A stretch of DNA of 64,000 nucleotides from assembly GCF_003334785.1 (NCBI RefSeq), contig NZ_QOWV01000009.1. One strand, written 5' to 3'. The stretch is from Escherichia coli (lineage in GTDB: Bacteria > Pseudomonadota > Gammaproteobacteria > Enterobacterales > Enterobacteriaceae). The position numbers and the translations under genes are program-made. The notes beneath the pieces were generated by a model. It was not told the origin of the DNA. It saw nothing but the letters and a program-made list of their open reading frames with translations, and ran no database searches. Of the stretch, positions 1-51,649 are shown piece by piece; position 1 is the stretch's first letter, and each line of letters begins with the position of its first letter.

Positions 1-2689
1 CCAGCCTGCCCGTGGCGCTGTAGCCGTATTCCCGCGTCTGTCGCGGGCCGCTGATGCGCACCAGGTCGCCGTTGTCACTCCACCCGTAGTCACGGTCATA
101 TACCAGGCTGTTCAGGTGCTGGCTCTGTAACTGGCCTGCGGGGGTGTATGTGCTGGTCAGTTCGTATGCGGCATTACTGCCTGCCATGCTGCCGAAGCTG
201 CGCACCGTCTCACGGTGCAGCCTGTCCCGCGTATACTCGACCAGCGGCGTCCCGCCCAGCTTCATTCCCGCCAGGTAACCGCTGCCATACGTCAGCCACT
301 CCACCGGCGGCAGGCTGTCCGGCGTGACGCGGTTTGCCAGCCCCTGCTCGTTGTATGCGTGTTTCGTCTCATGCTGCCACAGCAGTTCCCCCGTCTCCGG
401 GTTCTCCACCGTCTGGCATTCGCCGGTCAGGCGGCCTTTATCGTCATAGCCATAGTGGACGGCAACACGGTGGCCTTCGCTCAGGTGGCTGATGTCTGTC
501 AGCCAGCCGTGGCCATCATACTGCCACTGCTCTGCCGGTTCGCCGTTCACCGTGCGGTGAGTGATACGGTCCGATTCATCGTAGTACCAGAGGATGACAA
601 GTCCCTCATCCTCACTCTGTGTGAGTTTTCCGGTCAGGTCATAATGATAACGTTGCGTCCGCCCGTCAAAGCCGCCCTGCTGTACCAGCCGGTCCAGCGC
701 ATCGTAACTGAAGACGCTGTGGCTGCCGTTCTCGTTGGTCAGGCTGATGACACGTCCGGCAGCATCGTACTCCATACTGCGCGTCAGCCCGCCCTGCGTG
801 GTGCTGACCGCCTTTCCCCACGCATCGTACTGTGTCTCGCTCCGGTTGCCGTCCGGGGTGATAACGGCAGTCAGGTCGCCTGCGGCGTTGTATTCATACC
901 GCGTTTCACGGCCCTGTGCGTCTTTCACCGAGGTTAACCGGCCACGGTTGTCATAGCGGCGGTAAAGGCTGATGCCTTCCTCGCGGTGGACCGCCGTCAT
1001 CTGGCCGAAGCGGTCGTATTCATAACGGGTCTGGTAGCCCGAGCAGTCGGTGAACGCCAGCAACTGCCCGTAGCGGCTCCAGGTCATCTGCCGGGTGCTG
1101 CCCGTCGCATCCGTTGTCGTCGCCGGTAACTCACTGTGCGCGTCATCGTAGCGGTAGCGTACTGTCTCCCCGCTGCGCGATGTCTCCGATACCAGCCTGC
1201 CCGGTTCATCATATTCCCGGCGGCTCTCCAGCCCGTCCGGGGACACCACCGCCGTCAGCTGGTTCCCGTCGTTATAGTAAAATTTCGTCTCCCGCCCGTC
1301 CGGTGTGGTGATGTCCGTGATATCGCCGGACACCACATTCAGACCGTACTCTGTCCTCCGTCCCGCCGCGTCCGTCTGCGCCGTGAGCCTTCCTGCCGCG
1401 TCATACCCGCTGCGCGTGACGCTGCCGTCCGCCAGTTCTTTTTTCACCACCCGTTTCAGCCCGGCCCCGCCTTCTGTATGCAGCACCTCACGCCGGTTCA
1501 GGCTGTCGGTGACGGTGATGCGGTCCTGCTCATAAAGATAGCGGTAGCTTAACCCTGCCGGGTTCAGTTGCTCCACCACCCGCCCCGTATCGTCGTAGCG
1601 GTAGCGCATCTCCGGCCTTCCCGCGTAACGGTGCGCCACCATCCGGCCCGGGTGCTGCGCGTCATACGTGAAAGCGCGCACCTGCGTATTGCTGCGGTCA
1701 TATACCGCCAGCAGTTCACCGGCTTCCGTATACGTGTACCGCACCAGTGGCGCAGCGGGCAGGCTCTCCGGGTATGCCGGGTCGTGCATCAGCCACACCG
1801 CCGAAAGGCGGATACCCCTGTCGGGGCCGTATTCGGTACCGGGCAGTGTGTCGGGGAACGCTGAGGCTGAGAGAGGGCGGGAACTGTCAGAAGAAGATAG
1901 CGAAGAGGTGCGGGCCTCTTCCGCACGCTGCGCCTGCGTGGTCAGCACCAGACGGAACTCCCGCCCGGCACCGTCCGTCACGCCGGTGATTTCCCCGGCC
2001 AGGTCACCGGCGGCCTCACGCCGGTACGTCAGCGTCCGCCCGAAGCGGTCCGCCATCCCGGTAAGCACCCGGTACGGCGGCAGCGGCGCTGGCAGTACGT
2101 CCTCAGCACCCGGCACCCGCTCAGACCACCCCAGTATCCACCACGGCCCCTGTGCGCTGTTGGTCGCCAGGTAAAGATGCGGGCTTAACCGGATATCCGG
2201 CGGCAGCGCCCCCCACAGCCGCGCCAGCGTATGGCCGTCCGGCTGTGCTGCCTTACCACCGCGCACCAGCCACATTGACTCACTGCGGCTGTACACCGCC
2301 TCCCCCGGCAGCAGCGGCTCAAAGTGAATGCTCCGCCCGCCGTTGTCGTTGAGTATCAGTCCGTCATCACGTAGCTGTAAGCGGATATCAGAAGGCGCTT
2401 TCCAGCCGGGGCCGAAAACGCCCACCGGTGCAGGCGTCTTCGTCCGGTAGCTGCTGTAGGTGCGGGAGAGAATGAACGGCAGCGGGCCGGGCAGCGCAAG
2501 GTCCGTCTCGCCGGGCAGCACCTTCGCCCCCAGCAGCGGATTTACCGGGTTGCCCGAAGTCATCCCGCCCGGACACACCGAGCACGCCACGCCGGTGGGC
2601 GCGCCAATTCTTACACCTGCCGAACCCTGGACAATGGGACCGCCATACTGAGTCATATCTCCCTGACGCGCCGCTGGTTTTCCGCTCAT
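1..2689 (-). CDS. rhsD: Rhs-family polymorphic toxin, N-terminal and core portion (5' end in window, 3' end lies beyond window start)
   Basis: Minus-strand translation from ATG at 2689 reads MSGKPAARQGDMTQYGGPIVQGSAGVRIGAPTGVACSVCPGGMTSGNPVNPLLGAKVLPGETDLALPGPLPF..., the conserved Rhs N-terminus. Absence of any minus-strand ORF in the track implies the frame stays open to position 1. Body is visibly GC-rich. Lies next to ybbP as in K-12. YD repeats not checked residue by residue. Confidence 0.85.
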   Translation of the reverse strand, partial: MSGKPAARQGDMTQYGGPIVQGSAGVRIGAPTGVACSVCPGGMTSGNPVNPLLGAKVLPGETDLALPGPLPFILSRTYSSYRTKTPAPVGVFGPGWKAPSDIRLQLRDDGLILNDNGGRSIHFEPLLPGEAVYSRSESMWLVRGGKAAQPDGHTLARLWGALPPDIRLSPHLYLATNSAQGPWWILGWSERVPGAEDVLPAPLPPYRVLTGMADRFGRTLTYRREAAGDLAGEITGVTDGAGREFRLVLTTQAQRAEEARTSSLSSSDSSRPLSASAFPDTLPGTEYGPDRGIRLSAVWLMHDPAYPESLPAAPLVRYTYTEAGELLAVYDRSNTQVRAFTYDAQHPGRMVAHRYAGRPEMRYRYDDTGRVVEQLNPAGLSYRYLYEQDRITVTDSLNRREVLHTEGGAGLKRVVKKELADGSVTRSGYDAAGRLTAQTDAAGRRTEYGLNVVSGDITDITTPDGRETKFYYNDGNQLTAVVSPDGLESRREYDEPGRLVSETSRSGETVRYRYDDAHSELPATTTDATGSTRQMTWSRYGQLLAFTDCSGYQTRYEYDRFGQMTAVHREEGISLYRRYDNRGRLTSVKDAQGRETRYEYNAAGDLTAVITPDGNRSETQYDAWGKAVSTTQGGLTRSMEYDAAGRVISLTNENGSHSVFSYDALDRLVQQGGFDGRTQRYHYDLTGKLTQSEDEGLVILWYYDESDRITHRTVNGEPAEQWQYDGHGWLTDISHLSEGHRVAVHYGYDDKGRLTGECQTVENPETGELLWQHETKHAYNEQGLANRVTPDSLPPVEWLTYGSGYLAGMKLGGTPLVEYTRDRLHRETVRSFGSMAGSNAAYELTSTYTPAGQLQSQHLNSLVYDRDYGWSDNGDLVRISGPRQTREYGYSATGRL

Positions 2690-3069
2690 ATAAAGTGCCC
2701 TTTTAGTTATTGTTCATATCCCTGTGTTAGCAACAAAAAAAAATAAAATGACACACAAGACCAGCTAATGTATTTATATATTTTTCACATAAACTTATTT
2801 GTTCTCAATCAACAACAACTGTTATTACAGGTCACTTTCAATATTTTATTAAACTAACATTTTTAGCACAGATGAATTCATCATCAACAAATTCACTATA
2901 TGGATAATATCCATTCAACGCATATGATTTATGATTTTATTAGTCTGAGTTATTTTTGTAGGGCTATATTTAAAATCAATAAACTCCACCGATTCAGATT
3001 AATATCAGCAATAGAAAGATAGGAAATCACCAATTCAATAACATCATCAATGAAACATATTGTAGAATT

Positions 3070-3104
3070 AATTTAAACAAGGCGTTCCATTCAACCAGAA
3101 CGCC
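3070..3104 (-). terminator. Intrinsic terminator downstream of ybbA-ybbP
   Basis: Minus-strand hairpin GGCGTTC-N10-GAACGCC followed by TTGTTTAAATTAATT. Confidence 0.5.
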
Positions 3105-3119
3105 CCTTATTTACTCTCA

Positions 3120-5534
3120 TCACCCCGCAAACTGCCTGAACAGCGCCTTACCCTTAACCAGTCGCGCACCCAGCCAGCCGCCGAAAAGCGACAGCAGCAG
3201 CGCTCCGCTGCACGGCAGAACAATCCACAATCGCCAGTCTGGCTCCCACGGAAAATCAAACACTTTCGCCTGCAACACTGCCAGCGCCGTTTCCGCACCA
3301 ATTGCGGCCACCAGGCCGGAAACAAACCCAAGCATGGCGAACTCACACCACAACGTGGTACGCAGCAGTTTTTTCCCCGCACCGAGTGTGCGCCACACCA
3401 CCAGCTCCTGATGACGCTGACGCATTCCCACCTGCACCTGTGCCAGCAACAGCAACATACCGCAGGCGGTGACCAGTACCACCATCACTTCCAGCGCCCG
3501 ACTTACCTGCTCCAGCACCTGACCGACCTGTTTTAAAATCGCGCCAATATCTAACAGGCTAATGGTCGGGAACTGGCGGTTGAGTTGTGTCAACATGCCG
3601 TTGCCATTCTCCCAGCGGAAACTGGTAAGCCAGCTCTGCGGTTGCCCGTCTAATGCCCCTTCAGGGAAAATAAAATAGAAATTAGGCCGCAGACTTTCCC
3701 AGTCCACTTTGCGCAGGCTGGTCACTTTAGCGCGGAACTCCTGGGTATCGCCCATAAAAGTCACGGTATCACCGAGGGCAACGTTTAAGCGTTTCGCCAG
3801 CCCCTCTTCCATCGACACTTCATCGGCTTTTGGCGGCCAGTTACCGGCGACAATCGGATTATGATCGGGCCGCGTATTTTGCCAGGTAAGATTGAGTTCG
3901 CGGTTAAGCGCCTCATCTTCATTACCTTCTGTCGGCTTATCGTTAATCGCCGTCAGCCGCGCCCGCACCACCGGATAAAACGATTCCGGGACTATCTGAT
4001 GTTCCGCGAGGAACGCTTTTAGCGGTGCTACCTGTTCTGTGGCGATGTTAATTAAAAAGTAGTTCGGGCTTTCTGGAGGTAGCTGCTGCTGCCAGCGGTC
4101 GAGCAGATCGCCACGCAACACCAGCAGCAGTGCCAGCAGCATAAAGGAGAGCGAAAATGCCGAAAGCTGACTTAACGTTGACCACGGCTGACGTAACAGG
4201 CGGCTAACCGCCAGGCGCAGAGGCAGCGATTTCAGCGTCATGCGGCGAAGTACATTCAGCAGCATCCAGCCCAGCACACCGCACAGCAAAGCCAGTACTA
4301 CCGCGCCCGCCAGCACCGCCCAAAGCAGCATGCTGCCACCCATTAATCCGGCGAGCAGCAGCACAACCACCACACTGACAATCGGCAGATAAAACTTCAG
4401 CGGCCAGACGTTCGCTACCACATCATTACGTAATACGCGTAAAGGCTGCGTTGCCAGCAACAAGCGATATGGTCGTAGCCCCACCAGCAGCGAGATGACC
4501 GTCATGGTGCCAAGCGCCCACAGCCACGGCCAGAGGCTGGCTGGCGGTAGTGCAGCAGGCAGAACGGGCTTGAGCAGCACCATCAACACGTTTTCGAACA
4601 ACAGGCCTATGGCCCCACCGGTAACGGCTGAAAGCGTCAGCACCATCAACCACTGACCGACGATTAGCTTACGCAGTTGCGCTCGCCCTGCCCCCAGCGT
4701 TTTGAGGATCGCCACCAGATCGTAGCGACTGCGACAGTAATGATTCATCGCTACCGCCACCGCTGCCACTGCCAGCAGCAAGGTCAGAAGCGCCGAAAGC
4801 AGCAGGAACTGTTGCGAGCGTTCCATCGATCGCCCCAGCGCGCCTTCGTCCTGTTCCAGACCGTACCAGCGTTGTTCGGGTTTAAGCTGAGGTAACAACC
4901 ATTTCTCATAGCCGTCGAGCTGGTTCTCGTTGCCGCCGAATTTATAACGCCAGGTGACCCGACTCCCCGGCTGCACGGCTCCGGTTTTATCGACATCCGC
5001 CAGATTCATCATCAGACGCGGAGCCATCTGGAAGGGGTTAAAACCGGAATCCGGTTCCTGAATCACTTCTCCGGCAATCCGCAAGGTGGCATCGCCCACG
5101 TCAATGGTGTCGCCCGTTTTCAGGTTAAGCAGTGCCATCAGGCGTGGGGCCAGCAATACGCTGCCCGCCTGCGGTTTCAGGCCAGGGGGATTAGTTTGCA
5201 GATCGCCATACATCGGGTAGATATCATCCACCGCTTTGACGTTCGCCAGCTGCGGTGTGTCGCCTGCAAAGGTCATTGTGGCGAAAGTCAGCTGCTTGCC
5301 GACTTTCAGGCCGCGCTTTTGCGCTTCCTCCAGCCACGCTTGCGGCACTTCGCGTGAACTGCGCAACGCCCGATCGCCCGCCATAAACTCACGGCTTTGC
5401 TGGCTTAAGCCCTTCTCCATGCGATCGCTGATATTGCCCAGCGCCAGCACGCAGGCCACCGCCAGGCTTAGCGCCAGCCAGACAATTAATAGCGACGGCG
5501 AACGCCATTCGCGCCAGAACCAACGTGCAATCAT
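3120..5534 (-). CDS. ybbP: ABC transporter permease, MacB/FtsX-type with large periplasmic domains (804 aa)
   Basis: ORF track 3120..5534; multiple TM segments and duplicated FtsX-like permease architecture; start ATG overlaps ybbA stop (ATGA). Confidence 0.9.
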   Translation of the reverse strand: MIARWFWREWRSPSLLIVWLALSLAVACVLALGNISDRMEKGLSQQSREFMAGDRALRSSREVPQAWLEEAQKRGLKVGKQLTFATMTFAGDTPQLANVKAVDDIYPMYGDLQTNPPGLKPQAGSVLLAPRLMALLNLKTGDTIDVGDATLRIAGEVIQEPDSGFNPFQMAPRLMMNLADVDKTGAVQPGSRVTWRYKFGGNENQLDGYEKWLLPQLKPEQRWYGLEQDEGALGRSMERSQQFLLLSALLTLLLAVAAVAVAMNHYCRSRYDLVAILKTLGAGRAQLRKLIVGQWLMVLTLSAVTGGAIGLLFENVLMVLLKPVLPAALPPASLWPWLWALGTMTVISLLVGLRPYRLLLATQPLRVLRNDVVANVWPLKFYLPIVSVVVVLLLAGLMGGSMLLWAVLAGAVVLALLCGVLGWMLLNVLRRMTLKSLPLRLAVSRLLRQPWSTLSQLSAFSLSFMLLALLLVLRGDLLDRWQQQLPPESPNYFLINIATEQVAPLKAFLAEHQIVPESFYPVVRARLTAINDKPTEGNEDEALNRELNLTWQNTRPDHNPIVAGNWPPKADEVSMEEGLAKRLNVALGDTVTFMGDTQEFRAKVTSLRKVDWESLRPNFYFIFPEGALDGQPQSWLTSFRWENGNGMLTQLNRQFPTISLLDIGAILKQVGQVLEQVSRALEVMVVLVTACGMLLLLAQVQVGMRQRHQELVVWRTLGAGKKLLRTTLWCEFAMLGFVSGLVAAIGAETALAVLQAKVFDFPWEPDWRLWIVLPCSGALLLSLFGGWLGARLVKGKALFRQFAG

Positions 5535-6217
5535 GCTTCCTCCTGCAACTGCCCGTTCACCAGCCGTAAGCAGCGGTCGCAGCGTGCCGCCAGTTGCAGG
5601 TCGTGGGTCACCATAATCAACGTGGTGCCATGTTCACGGTTGAGGGAAAACAGCAGGTCGGCAATTTTATCGCCCGTCTGGCGGTCAAGGTTGCCGGTGG
5701 GTTCGTCGGCAAACAGCACATCAGGTCGACCATTAAAGGCTCGTGCCAGCGCCACTCGTTGCTGTTCACCGCCGGAAAGCTGTGCCGGAAGATGATCCAG
5801 ACGTTTACCCAGCCCTAACTGTTCGAGCAACGCTTTCGCCCCGTTACGACTTTCCGCGCTACTCTCACCGCGCAGCAGAGCCGGAAGCTCGACGTTTTCC
5901 AGCGCGTTAAGGGTAGGAATTAACATAAATGACTGAAAAACAAAGCCGACGTGCTTCGCGCGCAACTTTGCCCGCGCTTCTTCGTCCATATTATGTAGCG
6001 GTTGTCCCACCAGACTCACTTCGCCACTGCTGCCGTCATCAAGCCCGGCGAGGATCGCCAGCAAGGTTGACTTACCCGATCCCGACTCGCCCACCAGTGC
6101 GATGGTCTCGCCACGTTTGACAACCAGCTCAACTCCGGTGAGGATGGAGAGTTCATGCTCCCCCTGACCGACGGACTTCTTAAGATGATGAACTTCAACA
6201 ATGTTTTCCGCTGGCAT
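5531..6217 (-). CDS. ybbA: ABC transporter ATP-binding protein
   Basis: Walker A GESGSGKST, ABC signature LSGGEQQRVALARA, Walker B LFADEPTGNLD; 4-bp overlap with ybbP. Confidence 0.92.
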   Translation of the reverse strand: MPAENIVEVHHLKKSVGQGEHELSILTGVELVVKRGETIALVGESGSGKSTLLAILAGLDDGSSGEVSLVGQPLHNMDEEARAKLRAKHVGFVFQSFMLIPTLNALENVELPALLRGESSAESRNGAKALLEQLGLGKRLDHLPAQLSGGEQQRVALARAFNGRPDVLFADEPTGNLDRQTGDKIADLLFSLNREHGTTLIMVTHDLQLAARCDRCLRLVNGQLQEEA

Positions 6218-6811
6218 TTGCCCTTCCTGTTCCTGGTCCTGTTAACCTTCCGTGCCGCCGCAGCGGACACGTTATTGATTCTGGGTGATAGCCTGAGCGC
6301 CGGGTATCGAATGTCTGCCAGCGCGGCCTGGCCTGCCTTGTTGAATGATAAGTGGCAGAGTAAAACGTCGGTAGTTAATGCCAGCATCAGCGGCGACACC
6401 TCGCAACAAGGACTGGCGCGCCTTCCGGCTCTGCTGAAACAGCATCAGCCGCGTTGGGTGCTGGTTGAACTGGGCGGCAATGACGGTTTGCGTGGTTTTC
6501 AGCCACAGCAAACCGAGCAAACGCTGCGCCAGATTTTGCAGGATGTCAAAGCCGCCAACGCTGAACCATTGTTAATGCAAATACGTCTGCCTGCAAACTA
6601 TGGTCGCCGTTATAATGAAGCCTTTAGCGCCATTTACCCCAAACTCGCCAAAGAGTTTGATGTTCCGCTGCTGCCCTTTTTTATGGAAGAGGTCTACCTC
6701 AAGCCACAATGGATGCAGGATGACGGTATTCATCCCAACCGCGACGCCCAGCCGTTTATTGCCGACTGGATGGCGAAGCAGTTGCAGCCTTTAGTAAATC
6801 ATGACTCATAA
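6185..6811 (+). CDS. tesA: Thioesterase I / lysophospholipase L1, SGNH hydrolase with signal peptide
   Basis: GDSLSAGY motif after signal peptide MMNFNNVFRWHLPFLFLVLLTFRAAAA; start chosen at ATG 6185 rather than track start 6155; 5' end overlaps ybbA start on the opposite strand by 33 bp. Confidence 0.9.
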   Translation: MMNFNNVFRWHLPFLFLVLLTFRAAAADTLLILGDSLSAGYRMSASAAWPALLNDKWQSKTSVVNASISGDTSQQGLARLPALLKQHQPRWVLVELGGNDGLRGFQPQQTEQTLRQILQDVKAANAEPLLMQIRLPANYGRRYNEAFSAIYPKLAKEFDVPLLPFFMEEVYLKPQWMQDDGIHPNRDAQPFIADWMAKQLQPLVNHDS

Positions 6812-7610
6812 AGCAACGGAGATCCTGACAGGTAAAGTTATGCAAAAATCGGTCTTAATTACCGGATGTTCCAGTGGAATTGGCCTGGAAAGCGCGCTCG
6901 AATTAAAACGCCAGGGTTTTCATGTGCTGGCAGGTTGCCGGAAACCGGATGATGTTGAGCGCATGAACAGCATGGGATTTACCGGCGTGTTGATCGATCT
7001 GGATTCACCAGAAAGTGTTGATCGCGCAGCCGACGAGGTGATCGCCCTGACCGATAATTGTCTGTATGGGATCTTTAACAATGCCGGATTCGGCATGTAT
7101 GGCCCCCTTTCCACCATCAGCCGTGCGCAGATGGAACAGCAGTTTTCCGCCAACTTTTTCGGCGCACACCAGCTCACCATGCGCCTGTTACCCGCGATGT
7201 TACCGCACGGTGAAGGGCGTATTGTGATGACATCATCGGTGATGGGATTAATCTCCACGCCGGGTCGTGGCGCTTACGCGGCCAGTAAATATGCGCTGGA
7301 GGCGTGGTCAGACGCACTGCGCATGGAGCTGCGCCACAGCGGAATTAAAGTCAGCCTGATCGAACCCGGTCCCATTCGTACTCGCTTCACCGACAACGTC
7401 AACCAGACGCAAAGTGATAAACCAGTCGAAAATCCCGGCATCGCCGCCCGCTTTACGTTGGGACCGGAAGCGGTGGTGGACAAAGTACGCCATGCTTTTA
7501 TTAGCGAGAAGCCGAAGATGCGCTATCCGGTGACGCTGGTGACCTGGGCGGTAATGGTGCTTAAGCGCCTGCTGCCGGGGCGCGTGATGGACAAAATATT
7601 GCAGGGGTGA
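6801..7610 (+). CDS. ybbO: Short-chain dehydrogenase/reductase (NAD(P)-dependent oxidoreductase)
   Basis: TGCSSGIGLE Rossmann motif and YAASKYALE catalytic YxxxK; overlaps tesA stop by 11 nt. Confidence 0.9.
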   Translation: MTHKATEILTGKVMQKSVLITGCSSGIGLESALELKRQGFHVLAGCRKPDDVERMNSMGFTGVLIDLDSPESVDRAADEVIALTDNCLYGIFNNAGFGMYGPLSTISRAQMEQQFSANFFGAHQLTMRLLPAMLPHGEGRIVMTSSVMGLISTPGRGAYAASKYALEAWSDALRMELRHSGIKVSLIEPGPIRTRFTDNVNQTQSDKPVENPGIAARFTLGPEAVVDKVRHAFISEKPKMRYPVTLVTWAVMVLKRLLPGRVMDKILQG

Positions 7611-7628
7611 GTTGAAGCGCGCGCTTAA

Positions 7629-8525
<897 letters not shown>

Positions 8526-25976: not shown

Positions 25977-26936
25977 ATGAAGCCGGAAAACAAACTACCT
26001 GTTCTGGACCTTATTTCTGCTGAAATGAAGACCGTTGTGAATACTCTTCAGCCGGATTTACCGCCCTGGCCCGCAACGGGAACGATTGCTGAGCAACGAC
26101 AGTATTACACGCTTGAGCGCCGATTCTGGAATGCGGGCGCTCCAGAAATGGCAACCAGAGCTTACATGGTTCCAACAAAATATGGGCAGGTGGAAACACG
26201 TCTCTTTTGTCCGCAGCCAGATAGCCCAGCGACGCTATTTTATTTGCATGGAGGCGGTTTTATTCTCGGCAATCTCGATACCCACGATCGCATCATGCGC
26301 CTGCTGGCAAGCTACAGCCAATGTACGGTGATTGGTATTGATTACACCCTTTCACCTGAAGCGCGTTTTCCGCAAGCGATAGAGGAAATTGTGGCTGCTT
26401 GTTGTTATTTCCACCAGCAGGCGGAGGATTATCAAATCAATATGTCCCGCATTGGCTTTGCCGGTGATTCCGCAGGTGCCATGCTGGCGCTCGCCAGTGC
26501 GTTGTGGTTGCGTGATAAACAGATCGATTGCGGTAAAGTTGCGGGCGTTTTGCTGTGGTATGGGCTTTACGGATTACGGGATTCCGTGACTCGTCGTCTG
26601 TTGGGCGGTGTCTGGGATGGCTTAACGCAACAGGATTTGCAGATGTACGAAGAGGCATATTTAAGCAACGACGCGGACCGCGAGTCGCCGTATTACTGTC
26701 TGTTTAATAATGATCTCACTCGCGAAGTTCCGCCCTGTTTTATTGCCGGGGCGGAGTTCGATCCGCTGCTGGATGACAGCCGTCTGCTTTACCAGACGTT
26801 AGCGGCGCATCAGCAGCCCTGTGAGTTCAAACTCTACCCAGGCACGCTGCACGCCTTTTTGCATTATTCACGGATGATGAAAACCGCCGACGAGGCTCTT
26901 CGCGACGGCGCTCAGTTCTTTACCGCTCAGCTTTAG
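25977..26936 (+). CDS. aes: Acetyl esterase (HSL-family alpha/beta hydrolase)
   Basis: HGGGF oxyanion motif and GDSAGA nucleophile elbow. Confidence 0.93.
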
Positions 26937-39541: not shown

Positions 39542-40189
39542 TTATTCGTTAGTGGCAGGATTACGAAGCGTGGGGCACAGGAGATACATCTCCAGTAAGA
39601 TGGCAACGTAATCGCGGGCTTCTTTTTTAAGATCAAAAGATTGCGGGGCAAAGAGCCAGTTTTCCATCAGGCCGGAAATATAGCCGCGCATAATAATTGC
39701 TGCGCGACGCGTCATTAAATCCGCAGGCAACATTTTCGCTTCAATACAATGTTTTAACGTTTGTTCTATACGGTCATAACTTTCCAGACAGAGATTACGT
39801 TGTGCCTGTTGCACAACAGCCATTTCTCCGACAAATTCGCATTTGTGGAATATAATCTCCATCAATAATCGACGCCGTTCTTCTGTCACCGTGGATTCAA
39901 GAACATGAATTAATATCTCTCTTAATACTGAGAGTGGATCGCCAGGGAATTTTGCCTGATACTCAAGCTCTAGTTCACCAATATTGGATTCTGACAGTTC
40001 CCAGATCTCACTGAACAAATCCGACTTGTCTTTAAAATGCCAGTAGATTGCACCGCGCGTAACGCCAGCTGCTTTTGCAATCTCGCCCAGCGAGGTGGAT
40101 GATACCCCCTGCTGTGAGAAAAGACGTAGAGCCACATCGAGGATGTGTTGGCGCGTTTCTTGCGCTTCTTGTTTGGTTTTTCGTGCCAT
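39542..40189 (-). CDS. acrR: TetR-family repressor of acrAB
   Basis: N-terminal TetR HTH; divergent from acrA across an operator palindrome. Confidence 0.93.
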
Positions 40190-40217
40190 ATGTTCGTGAA
40201 TTTACAGGCGTTAGATT

Positions 40218-40241
40218 TACATACATTTGTGAATGTATGTA
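40218..40241. promoter_or_regulatory. AcrR operator, 24-bp inverted repeat in the acrR-acrA divergent region
   Basis: TACATACATT-TGTG-AATGTATGTA, perfect 10-bp arms. Confidence 0.8.
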
Positions 40242-40330
40242 CCATAGCACGACGATAATATAAACGCAGCAATGGGTTTATTAACTTTTGACCATTGACC
40301 AATTTGAAATCGGACACTCGAGGTTTACAT

Positions 40331-41524
40331 ATGAACAAAAACAGAGGGTTTACGCCTCTGGCGGTCGTTCTGATGCTCTCAGGCAGCTTAGCCCTAACAG
40401 GATGTGACGACAAACAGGCCCAACAAGGTGGCCAGCAGATGCCCGCCGTTGGCGTAGTAACAGTCAAAACTGAACCTCTGCAGATCACAACCGAGCTTCC
40501 GGGTCGCACCAGTGCCTACCGGATCGCAGAAGTTCGTCCTCAAGTTAGCGGGATTATCCTGAAGCGTAATTTCAAAGAAGGTAGCGACATCGAAGCAGGT
40601 GTCTCTCTCTATCAGATTGATCCTGCGACCTATCAGGCGACATACGACAGTGCGAAAGGTGATCTGGCGAAAGCCCAGGCTGCAGCCAATATCGCGCAAT
40701 TGACGGTGAATCGTTATCAGAAACTGCTCGGTACTCAGTACATCAGTAAGCAAGAGTACGATCAGGCTCTGGCTGATGCGCAACAGGCGAATGCTGCGGT
40801 AACTGCGGCGAAAGCTGCCGTTGAAACTGCGCGGATCAATCTGGCTTACACCAAAGTCACCTCTCCGATTAGCGGTCGCATTGGTAAGTCGAACGTGACG
40901 GAAGGCGCATTGGTACAGAACGGTCAGGCGACTGCGCTGGCAACCGTGCAGCAACTTGATCCGATCTACGTTGATGTGACCCAGTCCAGCAACGACTTCC
41001 TGCGCCTGAAACAGGAACTGGCGAATGGCACGCTGAAACAAGAGAACGGCAAAGCCAAAGTGTCACTGATCACCAGTGACGGCATTAAGTTCCCGCAGGA
41101 CGGTACGCTGGAATTCTCTGACGTTACCGTTGATCAGACCACTGGGTCTATCACCCTACGCGCTATCTTCCCGAACCCGGATCACACTCTGCTGCCGGGT
41201 ATGTTCGTGCGCGCACGTCTGGAAGAAGGGCTTAATCCAAACGCTATTTTAGTCCCGCAACAGGGCGTAACCCGTACGCCGCGTGGCGATGCCACCGTAC
41301 TGGTAGTTGGCGCGGATGACAAAGTGGAAACCCGTCCGATCGTTGCAAGCCAGGCTATTGGCGATAAGTGGCTGGTGACAGAAGGTCTGAAAGCAGGCGA
41401 TCGCGTAGTAATAAGTGGGCTGCAGAAAGTGCGTCCTGGTGTCCAGGTAAAAGCACAAGAAGTTACCGCTGATAATAACCAGCAAGCCGCAAGCGGTGCT
41501 CAGCCTGAACAGTCCAAGTCTTAA
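40331..41524 (+). CDS. acrA: Multidrug efflux periplasmic adaptor (membrane fusion protein), lipoprotein
   Basis: Lipobox LALTGC; start at ATG 40331 (MNKNRGFTPLAVVL...). Confidence 0.95.
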   Translation: MNKNRGFTPLAVVLMLSGSLALTGCDDKQAQQGGQQMPAVGVVTVKTEPLQITTELPGRTSAYRIAEVRPQVSGIILKRNFKEGSDIEAGVSLYQIDPATYQATYDSAKGDLAKAQAAANIAQLTVNRYQKLLGTQYISKQEYDQALADAQQANAAVTAAKAAVETARINLAYTKVTSPISGRIGKSNVTEGALVQNGQATALATVQQLDPIYVDVTQSSNDFLRLKQELANGTLKQENGKAKVSLITSDGIKFPQDGTLEFSDVTVDQTTGSITLRAIFPNPDHTLLPGMFVRARLEEGLNPNAILVPQQGVTRTPRGDATVLVVGADDKVETRPIVASQAIGDKWLVTEGLKAGDRVVISGLQKVRPGVQVKAQEVTADNNQQAASGAQPEQSKS

Positions 41525-50788: not shown

Positions 50789-51649
50789 ATGAGTCAGGCG
50801 CTAAAAAATTTACTGACATTGTTAAATCTGGAAAAAATTGAGGAAGGACTCTTTCGCGGCCAGAGTGAAGATTTAGGTTTACGCCAGGTGTTTGGCGGCC
50901 AGGTCGTGGGTCAGGCCTTGTATGCTGCAAAAGAGACCGTCCCTGAAGAGCGGCTGGTACATTCGTTTCACAGCTACTTTCTTCGCCCTGGCGATAGTAA
51001 GAAGCCGATTATTTATGATGTCGAAACGCTGCGTGACGGTAACAGCTTCAGCGCCCGCCGGGTTGCTGCTATTCAAAACGGCAAACCGATTTTTTATATG
51101 ACTGCCTCTTTCCAGGCACCAGAAGCGGGTTTCGAACATCAAAAAACAATGCCGTCCGCGCCAGCGCCTGATGGCCTACCTTCGGAAACGCAAATCGCCC
51201 AATCGCTGGCGCACCTGCTGCCGCCAGTGCTGAAAGATAAATTCATCTGCGATCGTCCGCTGGAAGTCCGTCCGGTGGAGTTTCATAACCCACTGAAAGG
51301 TCACGTCGCAGAACCACATCGTCAGGTGTGGATCCGCGCAAATGGTAGCGTGCCGGATGACCTGCGCGTTCATCAGTATCTGCTCGGTTACGCTTCTGAT
51401 CTTAACTTCCTGCCGGTAGCTCTACAGCCGCACGGCATCGGTTTTCTCGAACCGGGGATTCAGATTGCCACCATTGACCATTCCATGTGGTTCCATCGCC
51501 CGTTTAATTTGAATGAATGGCTGCTGTATAGCGTGGAGAGCACCTCGGCGTCCAGCGCACGTGGCTTTGTGCGCGGTGAGTTTTATACCCAAGACGGCGT
51601 ACTGGTTGCCTCGACCGTTCAGGAAGGGGTGATGCGTAATCACAATTAA
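50789..51649 (+). CDS. tesB: Acyl-CoA thioesterase II (double hotdog fold)
   Basis: 286-aa product from ATG 50789 ([20 protein letters not shown]...). Confidence 0.93.

Follow-up and report, generated by a model that had tools for sequence, protein, structure and literature searches.

The closest described system to the locus analyzed here is the YbbAP-TesA complex of Escherichia coli (McAndrew et al., PLoS Biol 2025, PMC12646458). An AlphaFold in-silico pulldown, co-purification of YbbA2-YbbP-TesA, and cryo-EM (PDB 9GE6, 9GE7, and 9GE8) have established it as a 2:1:1 complex in which the TesA active site faces the periplasmic domains of YbbP. YbbP has 10 transmembrane helices (TMH), the 4-TMH FtsX unit being internally duplicated, and two periplasmic Porter/Sabre domains, both of which are visible in the solved structure, and a hydrophobic pocket on its periplasmic side opens and closes in an ATP-dependent manner, as captured in apo and AMP-PNP structures (PMC12646458). 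The esterase/thioesterase activity and the catalytic residues of the complex have also been demonstrated experimentally. In the model put forward by its authors, mechanotransmission powered by ATP pulls hydrophobic or lysophospholipid substrates out of the inner membrane for TesA to act on; the lipid extraction step of this model is based solely on structures and simulations. The authors also remarked that the two operons partially overlap (PMC12646458).

Two further systems are informative for comparison. Like YbbP, the permease of LolCDE-LolA has a MacB fold, but it is assembled from two separate proteins of 4 TMH each, LolC and LolE, in place of the one fused 10-TMH chain of YbbP. The partner proteins differ in fold and in how they dock: LolA is a chaperone, and TesA a hydrolase by which the substrate is destroyed. 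The bacitracin-sensing Type VII system BceAB-BceS shares with YbbP the fused 10-TMH chain and a lipid-binding site placed similarly to the YbbP pocket. However, BceB lacks the first periplasmic domain, and where YbbP binds a periplasmic esterase, BceB is partnered by a membrane histidine kinase. YbbAP-TesA is the first such transporter coupled to a hydrolase, a coupling that suggests how lysophospholipids or other esters might be cleared from the inner membrane. The significance of this coupling belongs to the 2025 publication, where the idea of a transporter-esterase functional unit already appeared.

The locus examined here lies in a 64-kb window, by which we mean the whole stretch of E. coli DNA that was analyzed (64,000 nucleotides) and which differs from E. 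coli K-12 MG1655 by 9 mismatches. On the minus strand it encodes ybbP (positions 3120-5534), a Type VII (MacB/FtsX-fold) ABC permease, and ybbA (5531-6217), the ATP-binding cassette subunit that is present in two copies per complex; the open reading frames specify 804 and 228 aa, respectively. On the plus strand it encodes tesA (6185-6811), a periplasmic SGNH/GDSL enzyme known as thioesterase I, protease I, or lysophospholipase L1. The first-pass annotation, made from the sequence alone, described YbbP as an 804-aa permease of the FtsX/MacB type, and this is confirmed by two Pfam FtsX domains (PF02687; residues 247-363, E = 4.5e-13, and 683-793, E = 2.6e-10) and by a match to NCBIfam NF041854 (1458 bits; cutoff 999). 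Residues 1-804 are identical to chain A of PDB 9GE6, 9GE7, and 9GE8. The Pfam MacB_PCD domain was undetected in E. coli YbbP and was weak or faint in two homologs. YbbA matched NF007879 (479 bits; cutoff 336) and is identical over residues 1-228 to chain B of 9GE6. Its next-best NCBIfam families were LolD, MacB, DevA, and FtsE, with LolD being the closest family other than YbbA itself (254 bits; PDB E ~1e-54), and its PDB neighbors were LolD and MacB. Domain and family matches thus reveal two of the features that characterize Type VII transporters, namely a 4-TMH FtsX-type permease unit and an ATPase of the LolD/MacB/FtsE clade.

TesA was likewise correctly recognized as a periplasmic SGNH thioesterase/lysophospholipase, as it matched NF007819 above the cutoff (413 bits; cutoff 270), its residues 27-208 match PDB 1IVN and chain T of 9GE8, and the catalytic residues are in place, with G34-D35-S36 as the GDS nucleophile motif, N99 as the oxyanion Asn, and D180 and H183 as the D-x-x-H dyad. 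These catalytic residues were invariant among 86 homologs, save for H183, which was conserved in 85 of them. The start of tesA is ambiguous in that tandem ATG codons occur at 6185 and 6188 and a longer ORF begins at 6155. Translation from 6185 yields a precursor of 208 aa and translation from the RefSeq start at 6188 yields one of 207 aa; the 2025 structure paper numbers TesA by the 208-aa precursor, in which the serine of the GDS motif is Ser36 (PMC12646458). Residues 1-26, MMNFNNVFRWHLPFLFLVLLTFRAAA, have the basic, hydrophobic, and AxA layout of a signal peptide, and the crystal chains begin at residue 27. These features suggest that residues 1-26 are a cleavable N-terminal signal peptide that directs TesA to the periplasm. 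Taken together, the residue-for-residue identity of the encoded proteins to the chains of 9GE6, 9GE7, and 9GE8 shows that the E. coli ybbP-ybbA/tesA-ybbO locus is the YbbAP-TesA system. The published work (PMC12646458) did not include an analysis of start-overlap conservation, of dual-coding constraint, or of how ybbO linkage is limited to Enterobacterales, all of which are documented below.

Genomes were searched for the locus with an alignment of 12 YbbP sequences, and the sample of 85 loci comprised 79 genomes (51 from Enterobacterales and 28 from other taxa) and six metagenome contigs. Two cluster representatives could be assigned a name, Ferrimonas and Candidatus Nitrosacidococcus. All sampled homologs with known taxon belonged to the Gammaproteobacteria. 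In 79/79 informative species genomes tesA was divergent from and adjacent to ybbA-ybbP, and the same linkage was observed in 6/6 metagenome contigs with YbbP homologs of 30-54% identity. Over all of these loci, YbbP identity reached down to 30%. Genomes with the linkage were affiliated with the Enterobacterales, Aeromonas, Shewanella, Ferrimonas, Methylophaga, Endozoicomonas, Thiogranum, Chromatiales, and Spongiibacteraceae, and linkage in P. aeruginosa has been reported (PMC12646458). The first-pass annotation had held that its proposal of a functional unit would fail if the tesA-ybbAP linkage were not conserved outside E. coli; the linkage was universal in the 85 loci sampled. The additions to the published system are modest: a tesA linkage that is universal in a broad gammaproteobacterial sample, an ATGA junction and a start overlap that are fixed across the Enterobacterales, and the restricted linkage of ybbO.

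The interface between TesA and YbbP was also compared among homologs. All residues named in the structure paper are present in the proteins encoded here (TesA D35, S36, N99, N138, R141, R142, Y143, D180, and H183; YbbP D145, D148, R235, R239, L403, and L754). N138, Y139, and G140 of TesA were invariant, Y143 was conserved in 85/86 homologs, and R142 in 81/86. In raw counts, uncorrected for phylogeny and with 51 of the 86 sequences from Enterobacterales, TesA R142 co-occurred with an acidic residue (D/E) at YbbP position 145 in 78 of 81 cases, and all five variants that lacked this arginine were paired with non-acidic residues. Similarly, a basic residue at TesA position 141 was accompanied by an acidic residue at YbbP position 148 in 57/57 cases, while an acidic residue at this position was found with only 5/29 of the non-basic variants. 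The residues that form the interface salt bridges are therefore both conserved and covarying.

Collectively, these observations are best explained by a coupled transporter-hydrolase that delivers substrate by mechanotransmission and is encoded by divergent genes with antisense overlap, a reading to which we assign a probability of roughly 85%. Two YbbA ATPases sit beneath one YbbP permease, forming the fourth Type VII (MacB-fold) ABC machine of E. coli. Binding of ATP would shut the pocket and the four-helix stalk, and this closure would push the substrate up to TesA, which would cleave the ester bond. Hydrolysis of ATP would then reset the machine, with nothing traversing the membrane. The first-pass annotation had suggested that the tight linkage marks a functional unit handling lipidic substrates of the envelope. 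The complex has since been demonstrated, a lipid role has been proposed for it (PMC12646458), and synteny was found in 85/85 loci. The remark in the first-pass annotation that the physiological role is under-characterized stands insofar as neither the natural substrate nor the coupling of ATP to hydrolysis is proven and deletion mutants have no known phenotype, but no longer applies to the complex, which has been solved (PMC12646458).

The delivery step is where a different function for YbbAP might be sought. By analogy to FtsEX-EnvC with its amidases, a purely regulatory Type VII example, YbbAP might act as an ATP-driven allosteric regulator or membrane anchor of TesA that delivers no substrate and instead switches the hydrolase or holds it in position on the inner-membrane surface. 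This would be compatible with the formation of a stable complex whatever the nucleotide, and with the results obtained with soluble substrates, where ATP did not stimulate esterase activity and where free TesA and the complex exhibited the same substrate profile, such that delivery is unproven (PMC12646458). However, TesA alone is fully active and no activation step is evident; moreover, its active site opens into a cavity that is continuous with the periplasmic domains of YbbP, the hydrophobic pocket is open to the outer leaflet in the apo state only, and molecular dynamics show lysoPG entering and partially leaving the bilayer (PMC12646458). We thus consider a regulator or anchor quite unlikely. 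Far less probable still is that YbbAP pumps a substrate of its own in efflux or secretion, in the manner of MacB, and that the adjacency of tesA is incidental. The MacB-type fold of YbbP and the affinity of YbbA to the LolD and MacB ATPases would be expected of such a pump, but tesA is linked in every one of the 85 informative loci, and neither overexpression of the complex nor knockout of ybbP/tesA changed beta-lactam resistance (PMC12646458). A tripartite pump of the MacAB-TolC type was rejected, since no gene for an adaptor (MFP) or outer-membrane factor was found beside ybbAP in the window or in the six gene-called contigs. In effect, the pump was refuted once the YbbAP-TesA complex had been co-purified and its structure solved (PMC12646458).

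The arrangement of the coupled transporter-hydrolase genes is compact at each junction. On the minus strand, the ybbA-ybbP junction reads ...GGAGGAAGC-ATGA-TTGCA, in which the TGA of ybbA and the ATG of ybbP share 4 nt (5531-5534), and a Shine-Dalgarno motif, AGGAGG, lies at 5544-5539 within the 3' end of ybbA. A literal ATGA was present at this junction in 51/51 Enterobacterales loci, bearing out the ATGA overlap noted previously. The overlap and the strong Shine-Dalgarno motif indicate that translation of ybbA and ybbP is coupled. Downstream of ybbP, a consensus scan identified a terminator-like hairpin of 11 pairs (3079-3106, minus strand) that lies 14 nt past the stop codon and is the likely end of the ybbAP transcript. 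No known RNA family was matched in an Rfam scan of positions 2500-8000 (E <= 0.1).

At the opposite end of ybbA, its start and that of tesA overlap head to head on opposite strands. The 33-bp overlap claimed from the sequence alone (6185-6217, both strands) holds when tesA is read from the ATG at 6185, and the RefSeq start at 6188 gives 30 nt. Residues 1-11 of YbbA on the minus strand are antisense to residues 1-11 of TesA on the plus strand, and each start codon lies inside the other coding sequence. Approximately 11 divergent gene pairs are annotated in the window, among which ybbA/tesA is the sole pair with overlapping coding sequences, the others being 69-261 bp apart. The starts overlapped in all 51 Enterobacterales loci, by 33 nt in 43, 30 nt in seven, and 48 nt in one. 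An annotation or chance artifact was rejected, as both ATGs and both reading frames were kept in each of these loci. Conservation of third codon positions in Enterobacterales was 0.92 (ybbA frame) and 0.90 (tesA frame) inside the overlap versus 0.63 and 0.59, respectively, outside of it. Because third positions are more conserved inside the overlap than outside, this indicates real dual coding. Elsewhere in the Enterobacterales alignment, inspection revealed no conservation clearly exceeding coding constraint.

Because the coding sequences overlap, the 5' UTR and promoter of each gene must sit within the other gene, and because the starts overlap by 30-33 nt the two transcripts are antisense at their 5' ends. 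The intertwining of the ybbA and tesA promoters that was predicted in the first-pass annotation is thus logically forced, and it agrees with the results of ExcludonFinder (NAR 2025, PMC12288877), an RNA-seq-based study that listed tesA-ybbA among 16 core divergent excludons in E. coli MG1655. A sigma-70 consensus scan of both strands of positions 5900-6600 yielded no promoter-like site, and nothing useful was found in the literature on native tesA/ybbO promoters or on the neighbors of P. aeruginosa PA2856/PA2857. Overlapping 5' transcripts are common to divergent excludons and tesA-ybbA, where they are forced by the overlap of coding sequences; however, mutually exclusive expression is implicit in the excludon concept, whereas ybbA and tesA encode partners of one stoichiometric complex.

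Partners of such a complex are expected to be co-expressed rather than mutually exclusive, which favors the view that the overlap arose through neutral genome compaction, became locked in by dual-coding constraint, and serves no regulatory function. Overlapping start regions, once formed, are difficult to reverse. Outside the Enterobacterales, where annotated starts were unreliable (gene callers and extrapolation disagreed, e.g., in L004-L008), we used the start-independent distance between the TesA GDS motif and the YbbA Walker A motif, which ranged from 193 to 468 nt. The genes remain divergent and adjacent in these loci, and since the spacing varies and is at least 225 nt in 19/34 loci, the complex works without the overlap, which is not required. 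Arguing against neutrality, the remaining 15/34 loci have spacings of <225 nt, suggesting that very tight or overlapping starts recur; the overlap has persisted across the order at YbbP identities down to 56%; and, of 58 RNA-seq samples, at least 50% show overlap between the tesA and ybbA transcripts (PMC12288877). On balance, we consider neutral compaction somewhat probable. That the overlap is regulatory, with the ybbAP and tesA-ybbO mRNAs setting the ratio of transporter to hydrolase through their antisense 5' ends, appears rather unlikely to us. If true, such regulation would govern the balance of free periplasmic TesA and YbbAP-docked TesA, for example by transcriptional interference or by cleavage with RNase III, and would represent an excludon acting between partners of one stoichiometric complex.

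The plus strand also carries ybbO (6801-7610), which encodes an NADP+-dependent aldehyde reductase (SDR), lies 3' of tesA in the same orientation, and has an annotated start that overlaps the 3' end of tesA by 11 nt. This gene was not beside tesA in any of the 28 genome loci from outside the Enterobacterales (28/28), but was the next gene after tesA in each of the 51 Enterobacterales loci and in one further locus (L004). Among the sampled genomes, the linkage of ybbO to tesA is therefore confined to the Enterobacterales.

The proteins encoded by ybbP (3120-5534, minus strand), ybbA (5531-6217, minus strand), and tesA (6188-6811 from the RefSeq start, plus strand) are identical in sequence to chains in PDB entries 9GE6, 9GE7, and 9GE8. 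The gene set at the locus, which also includes ybbO (6801-7610, plus strand), was taken from the ORF list and RefSeq annotation. YbbP carries two Pfam FtsX domains and scores 1458 bits against the NCBIfam YbbP equivalog (cutoff of 999). YbbA matches its own NCBIfam equivalog first, followed by LolD, MacB, DevA, and FtsE, and TesA matches the equivalog for thioesterase I/protease I/lysophospholipase L1. TesA crystal-structure chains start at residue 27, as would be expected if the signal peptide spans 26 residues. Until 2025, the literature presented YbbP as a fused double MacB unit whose function was not known (PMC5985334).

The first-pass annotation had proposed that YbbAP and TesA form a lipid-handling unit of the envelope. 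This was correct; the feature is real and its biology is already known from the literature, with structures (McAndrew et al., PLoS Biol 2025, PMC12646458; bioRxiv May 2025). In that study, YbbP was co-folded with each of the 534 proteins predicted to be periplasmic, which singled out TesA; residue coevolution between YbbP and TesA was detected, and YbbA, YbbP, and TesA were co-purified. Apo YbbAP, AMP-PNP YbbAP, and AMP-PNP YbbAP-TesA were solved at 3.7-4.6 Å. The complex has a stoichiometry of 2 YbbA : 1 YbbP : 1 TesA; in it, TesA rests against the two periplasmic domains and its active site is turned toward YbbP. With the ATP analog bound, the nucleotide-binding domains are closed, the four stalk helices are bundled, and a hydrophobic periplasmic-side pocket of YbbP is shut; no transmembrane pore was seen. 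The complex hydrolyzes p-nitrophenyl esters, acetyl-CoA, and nitrocefin, with the same substrate profile as free TesA, and activity in vivo requires TesA D35, S36, N99, D180, and H183. The absence of a distinctive deletion phenotype delayed characterization (all PMC12646458).

A full HMMER search for YbbP homologs (E ≤ 1e-30) recovered 2604 clusters at 50% identity, and the encoding contigs of six representatives (30-54% identity to YbbP) were examined. In all six, a GDSL lipase gene divergently adjoins an ABC_tran gene followed by an FtsX permease. A one-genome-per-species scan yielded 80 loci, which were searched for the four E. coli proteins by tblastn. In 79 of these, TesA lies directly upstream of YbbA and is encoded on the other strand; the 80th (L030) is uninformative as it begins inside ybbP. 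The informative loci comprised 51 from Enterobacterales, ranging from Escherichia to Yersinia, Dickeya, Pantoea, Hafnia, Photorhabdus, Providencia, Morganella, and Moellerella, and 28 from Aeromonas, Shewanella, Parashewanella, Ferrimonas, Methylophaga, Endozoicomonas, Thiogranum, Zhongshania, Dasania, Chromatiales, and Spongiibacteraceae. Thus, the linkage, whose absence outside E. coli would have counted against a functional unit, was present at 79/79 informative loci and on 6/6 contigs.

Residues at the YbbP-TesA interface were compared in 86 linked homolog pairs as raw counts that ignore kinship. TesA N138, Y139, and G140 were invariant, and Y143 and R142 were kept in 85 and 81 pairs, respectively. 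R142 was paired with YbbP D/E145 in 78 of 81 cases, and the five non-Arg variants all lay opposite non-acidic residues. Likewise, basic TesA141 was always paired with acidic YbbP148 (57/57), and among the 29 pairs with non-basic TesA141, YbbP148 was non-acidic in 24 and acidic in 5. These raw counts agree with the published coevolution analysis.

McAndrew et al. propose that ATP drives the extraction of hydrophobic molecules, which TesA then hydrolyzes, although by their own account extraction is unconfirmed (PMC12646458). This account, in which YbbAP would act as a mechanotransmission extractor supplying its attached hydrolase, is the best-supported, and lysophospholipids are the most plausible substrate; in simulations, lysoPG enters the apo pocket and partly leaves the bilayer (PMC12646458). 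The main rival is that YbbAP merely anchors or allosterically controls TesA, as in FtsEX-EnvC. Consistent with this, ATP has no effect on the hydrolysis of soluble substrates, the lack of stimulation being a limit that the authors state (PMC12646458), but the geometry of pocket, cavity, and active site argues against it. A MacB-type efflux role was excluded because no adaptor gene adjoins ybbAP in the window or on the six contigs and because the complex has been solved.

What remains of interest beyond the published work is the restricted linkage of ybbO and the order-wide dual-coding overlap of the tesA and ybbA starts. By tblastn, ybbO lies 3' of tesA in 51/51 Enterobacterales loci and in 0/28 others (L010-L060 and L075 with ybbO versus L061-L089 without); Aeromonas, Shewanella, and other genera have tesA-ybbAP without it. 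In one locus (L004), cnoX-like and qmcA-like neighbors also accompany tesA, beside ybbO. Because its linkage is confined to Enterobacterales, YbbO is unlikely to be a core component of the system. The ybbO start codon is itself ambiguous. The annotated start at 6801 runs 11 nt into the tesA 3' end, but alignment to the NCBIfam SDR model PRK08017 begins only at residue 14 (Met at 6840) and tesA-to-ybbO spacing differs between genera (tblastn of the surveyed loci), suggesting that the real start may be 6840, which would abolish the overlap.

At the ybbA/ybbP junction, the minus strand reads CAGGAGGAAGC-ATGA-TTG. This bears out the 4-nt stop/start overlap noted in the first-pass annotation and, with an AGGAGG Shine-Dalgarno upstream, constitutes the classic arrangement for translational coupling. 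The literal ATGA is retained in 51/51 Enterobacterales loci. At the other end of ybbA, the tesA start is ambiguous owing to tandem ATG codons at 6185 and 6188 (6185-6190). Translation from 6185 gives a 208-aa precursor and the 33-nt overlap with ybbA (6185-6217) originally reported; the RefSeq start gives 207 aa and 30 nt. UniProt and the structure paper number TesA from 6185, which places the GDS serine at Ser36 (McAndrew et al.). Seven Enterobacterales species have the second ATG only and Pantoea stewartii the first only (ATG ATC), indicating that neither is universally conserved.

The overlap spans 33 nt in 43 of the 51 Enterobacterales loci (including two with disrupted ybbA), 30 nt in the seven lacking the first ATG, and 48 nt in Brenneria, whose ybbA is extended by five codons at the N-terminal end. 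In one disrupted locus, Pantoea stewartii subsp. stewartii CCUG 26359 (L039, 5136-5998), extra sequence breaks ybbA into two pieces that are out of frame with each other (residues 1-76 and 69-227) and displaces the upstream part, including tesA, by 182 nt. Duplication of codons 69-76 suggests an insertion with target-site duplication; the 33-nt overlap is kept. In the other, Phytobacter massiliensis JC163 (L021, 5317-6001), two tblastn segments in different frames indicate an apparent frameshift near codons 91-101, perhaps marking a pseudogene or a sequencing error. By a measure independent of start calls, 192 or 195 nt separate the TesA GDS codons from the YbbA Walker-A codons in 48/51 Enterobacterales loci. 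Elsewhere this distance ranges from 193 to 468 nt; 19 of 34 loci reach 225 nt or more, a spacing at which overlap is unnecessary. An alignment of 49 sequences gave conservation values at third-codon positions of 0.92 (ybbA frame) and 0.90 (tesA frame) within the overlap versus 0.63 and 0.59 outside, which is the mark of two real opposite-strand reading frames and rules out a start-calling artifact.

In the ExcludonFinder list, tesA-ybbA is one of 16 divergent transcript overlaps detected in 50% or more of 58 MG1655 RNA-seq samples (NAR 2025, PMC12288877), which raises the possibility of a regulatory excludon. More likely, the overlap is neutral, frozen compaction, since many lineages have the complex without any overlap and complex partners should be co-expressed. 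A consensus promoter search around the two starts located none. A second of the 16 listed pairs, acrR/acrA (39542-41524), also lies in the window; here 141 bp separate the two coding sequences, whereas those of tesA-ybbA overlap, the only such pair among approximately 11 divergent gene pairs in the window.

The window belongs to the E. coli K-12 chromosome. Positions 3000-7000 match MG1655 at 100% identity, and 5419 of 5426 complete E. coli genomes carry this segment. Relative to the MG1655 record NZ_CP032667.1, the 64-kb window has nine single-base substitutions (7313, 28521, 50189, 50262, 51178, 54717, 57471, 58491, and 61068), with that at 7313 in ybbO and none in ybbP, ybbA, or tesA. An Rfam scan of the locus region returned no family matches; a terminator-like hairpin is predicted after the ybbP stop (3106-3079, minus strand). 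From this terminator to rhsD, the spacer at 2700-3119 is very AT-rich (27% GC at 2700-2999; rhsD core, 64-69%), and genomic SELEX placed an H-NS site and a constitutive rhsD promoter in it (PMC3946193). RefSeq annotates a short, frameshifted, incomplete pseudogene remnant directly after cueR (11954-12051). Three further esterase or acyl-CoA thioesterase genes share the window with tesA, namely aes (acetyl esterase Aes, 25977-26936), tesB (thioesterase II TesB, 50789-51649), and fadM (long-chain thioesterase FadM, 61150-61548).
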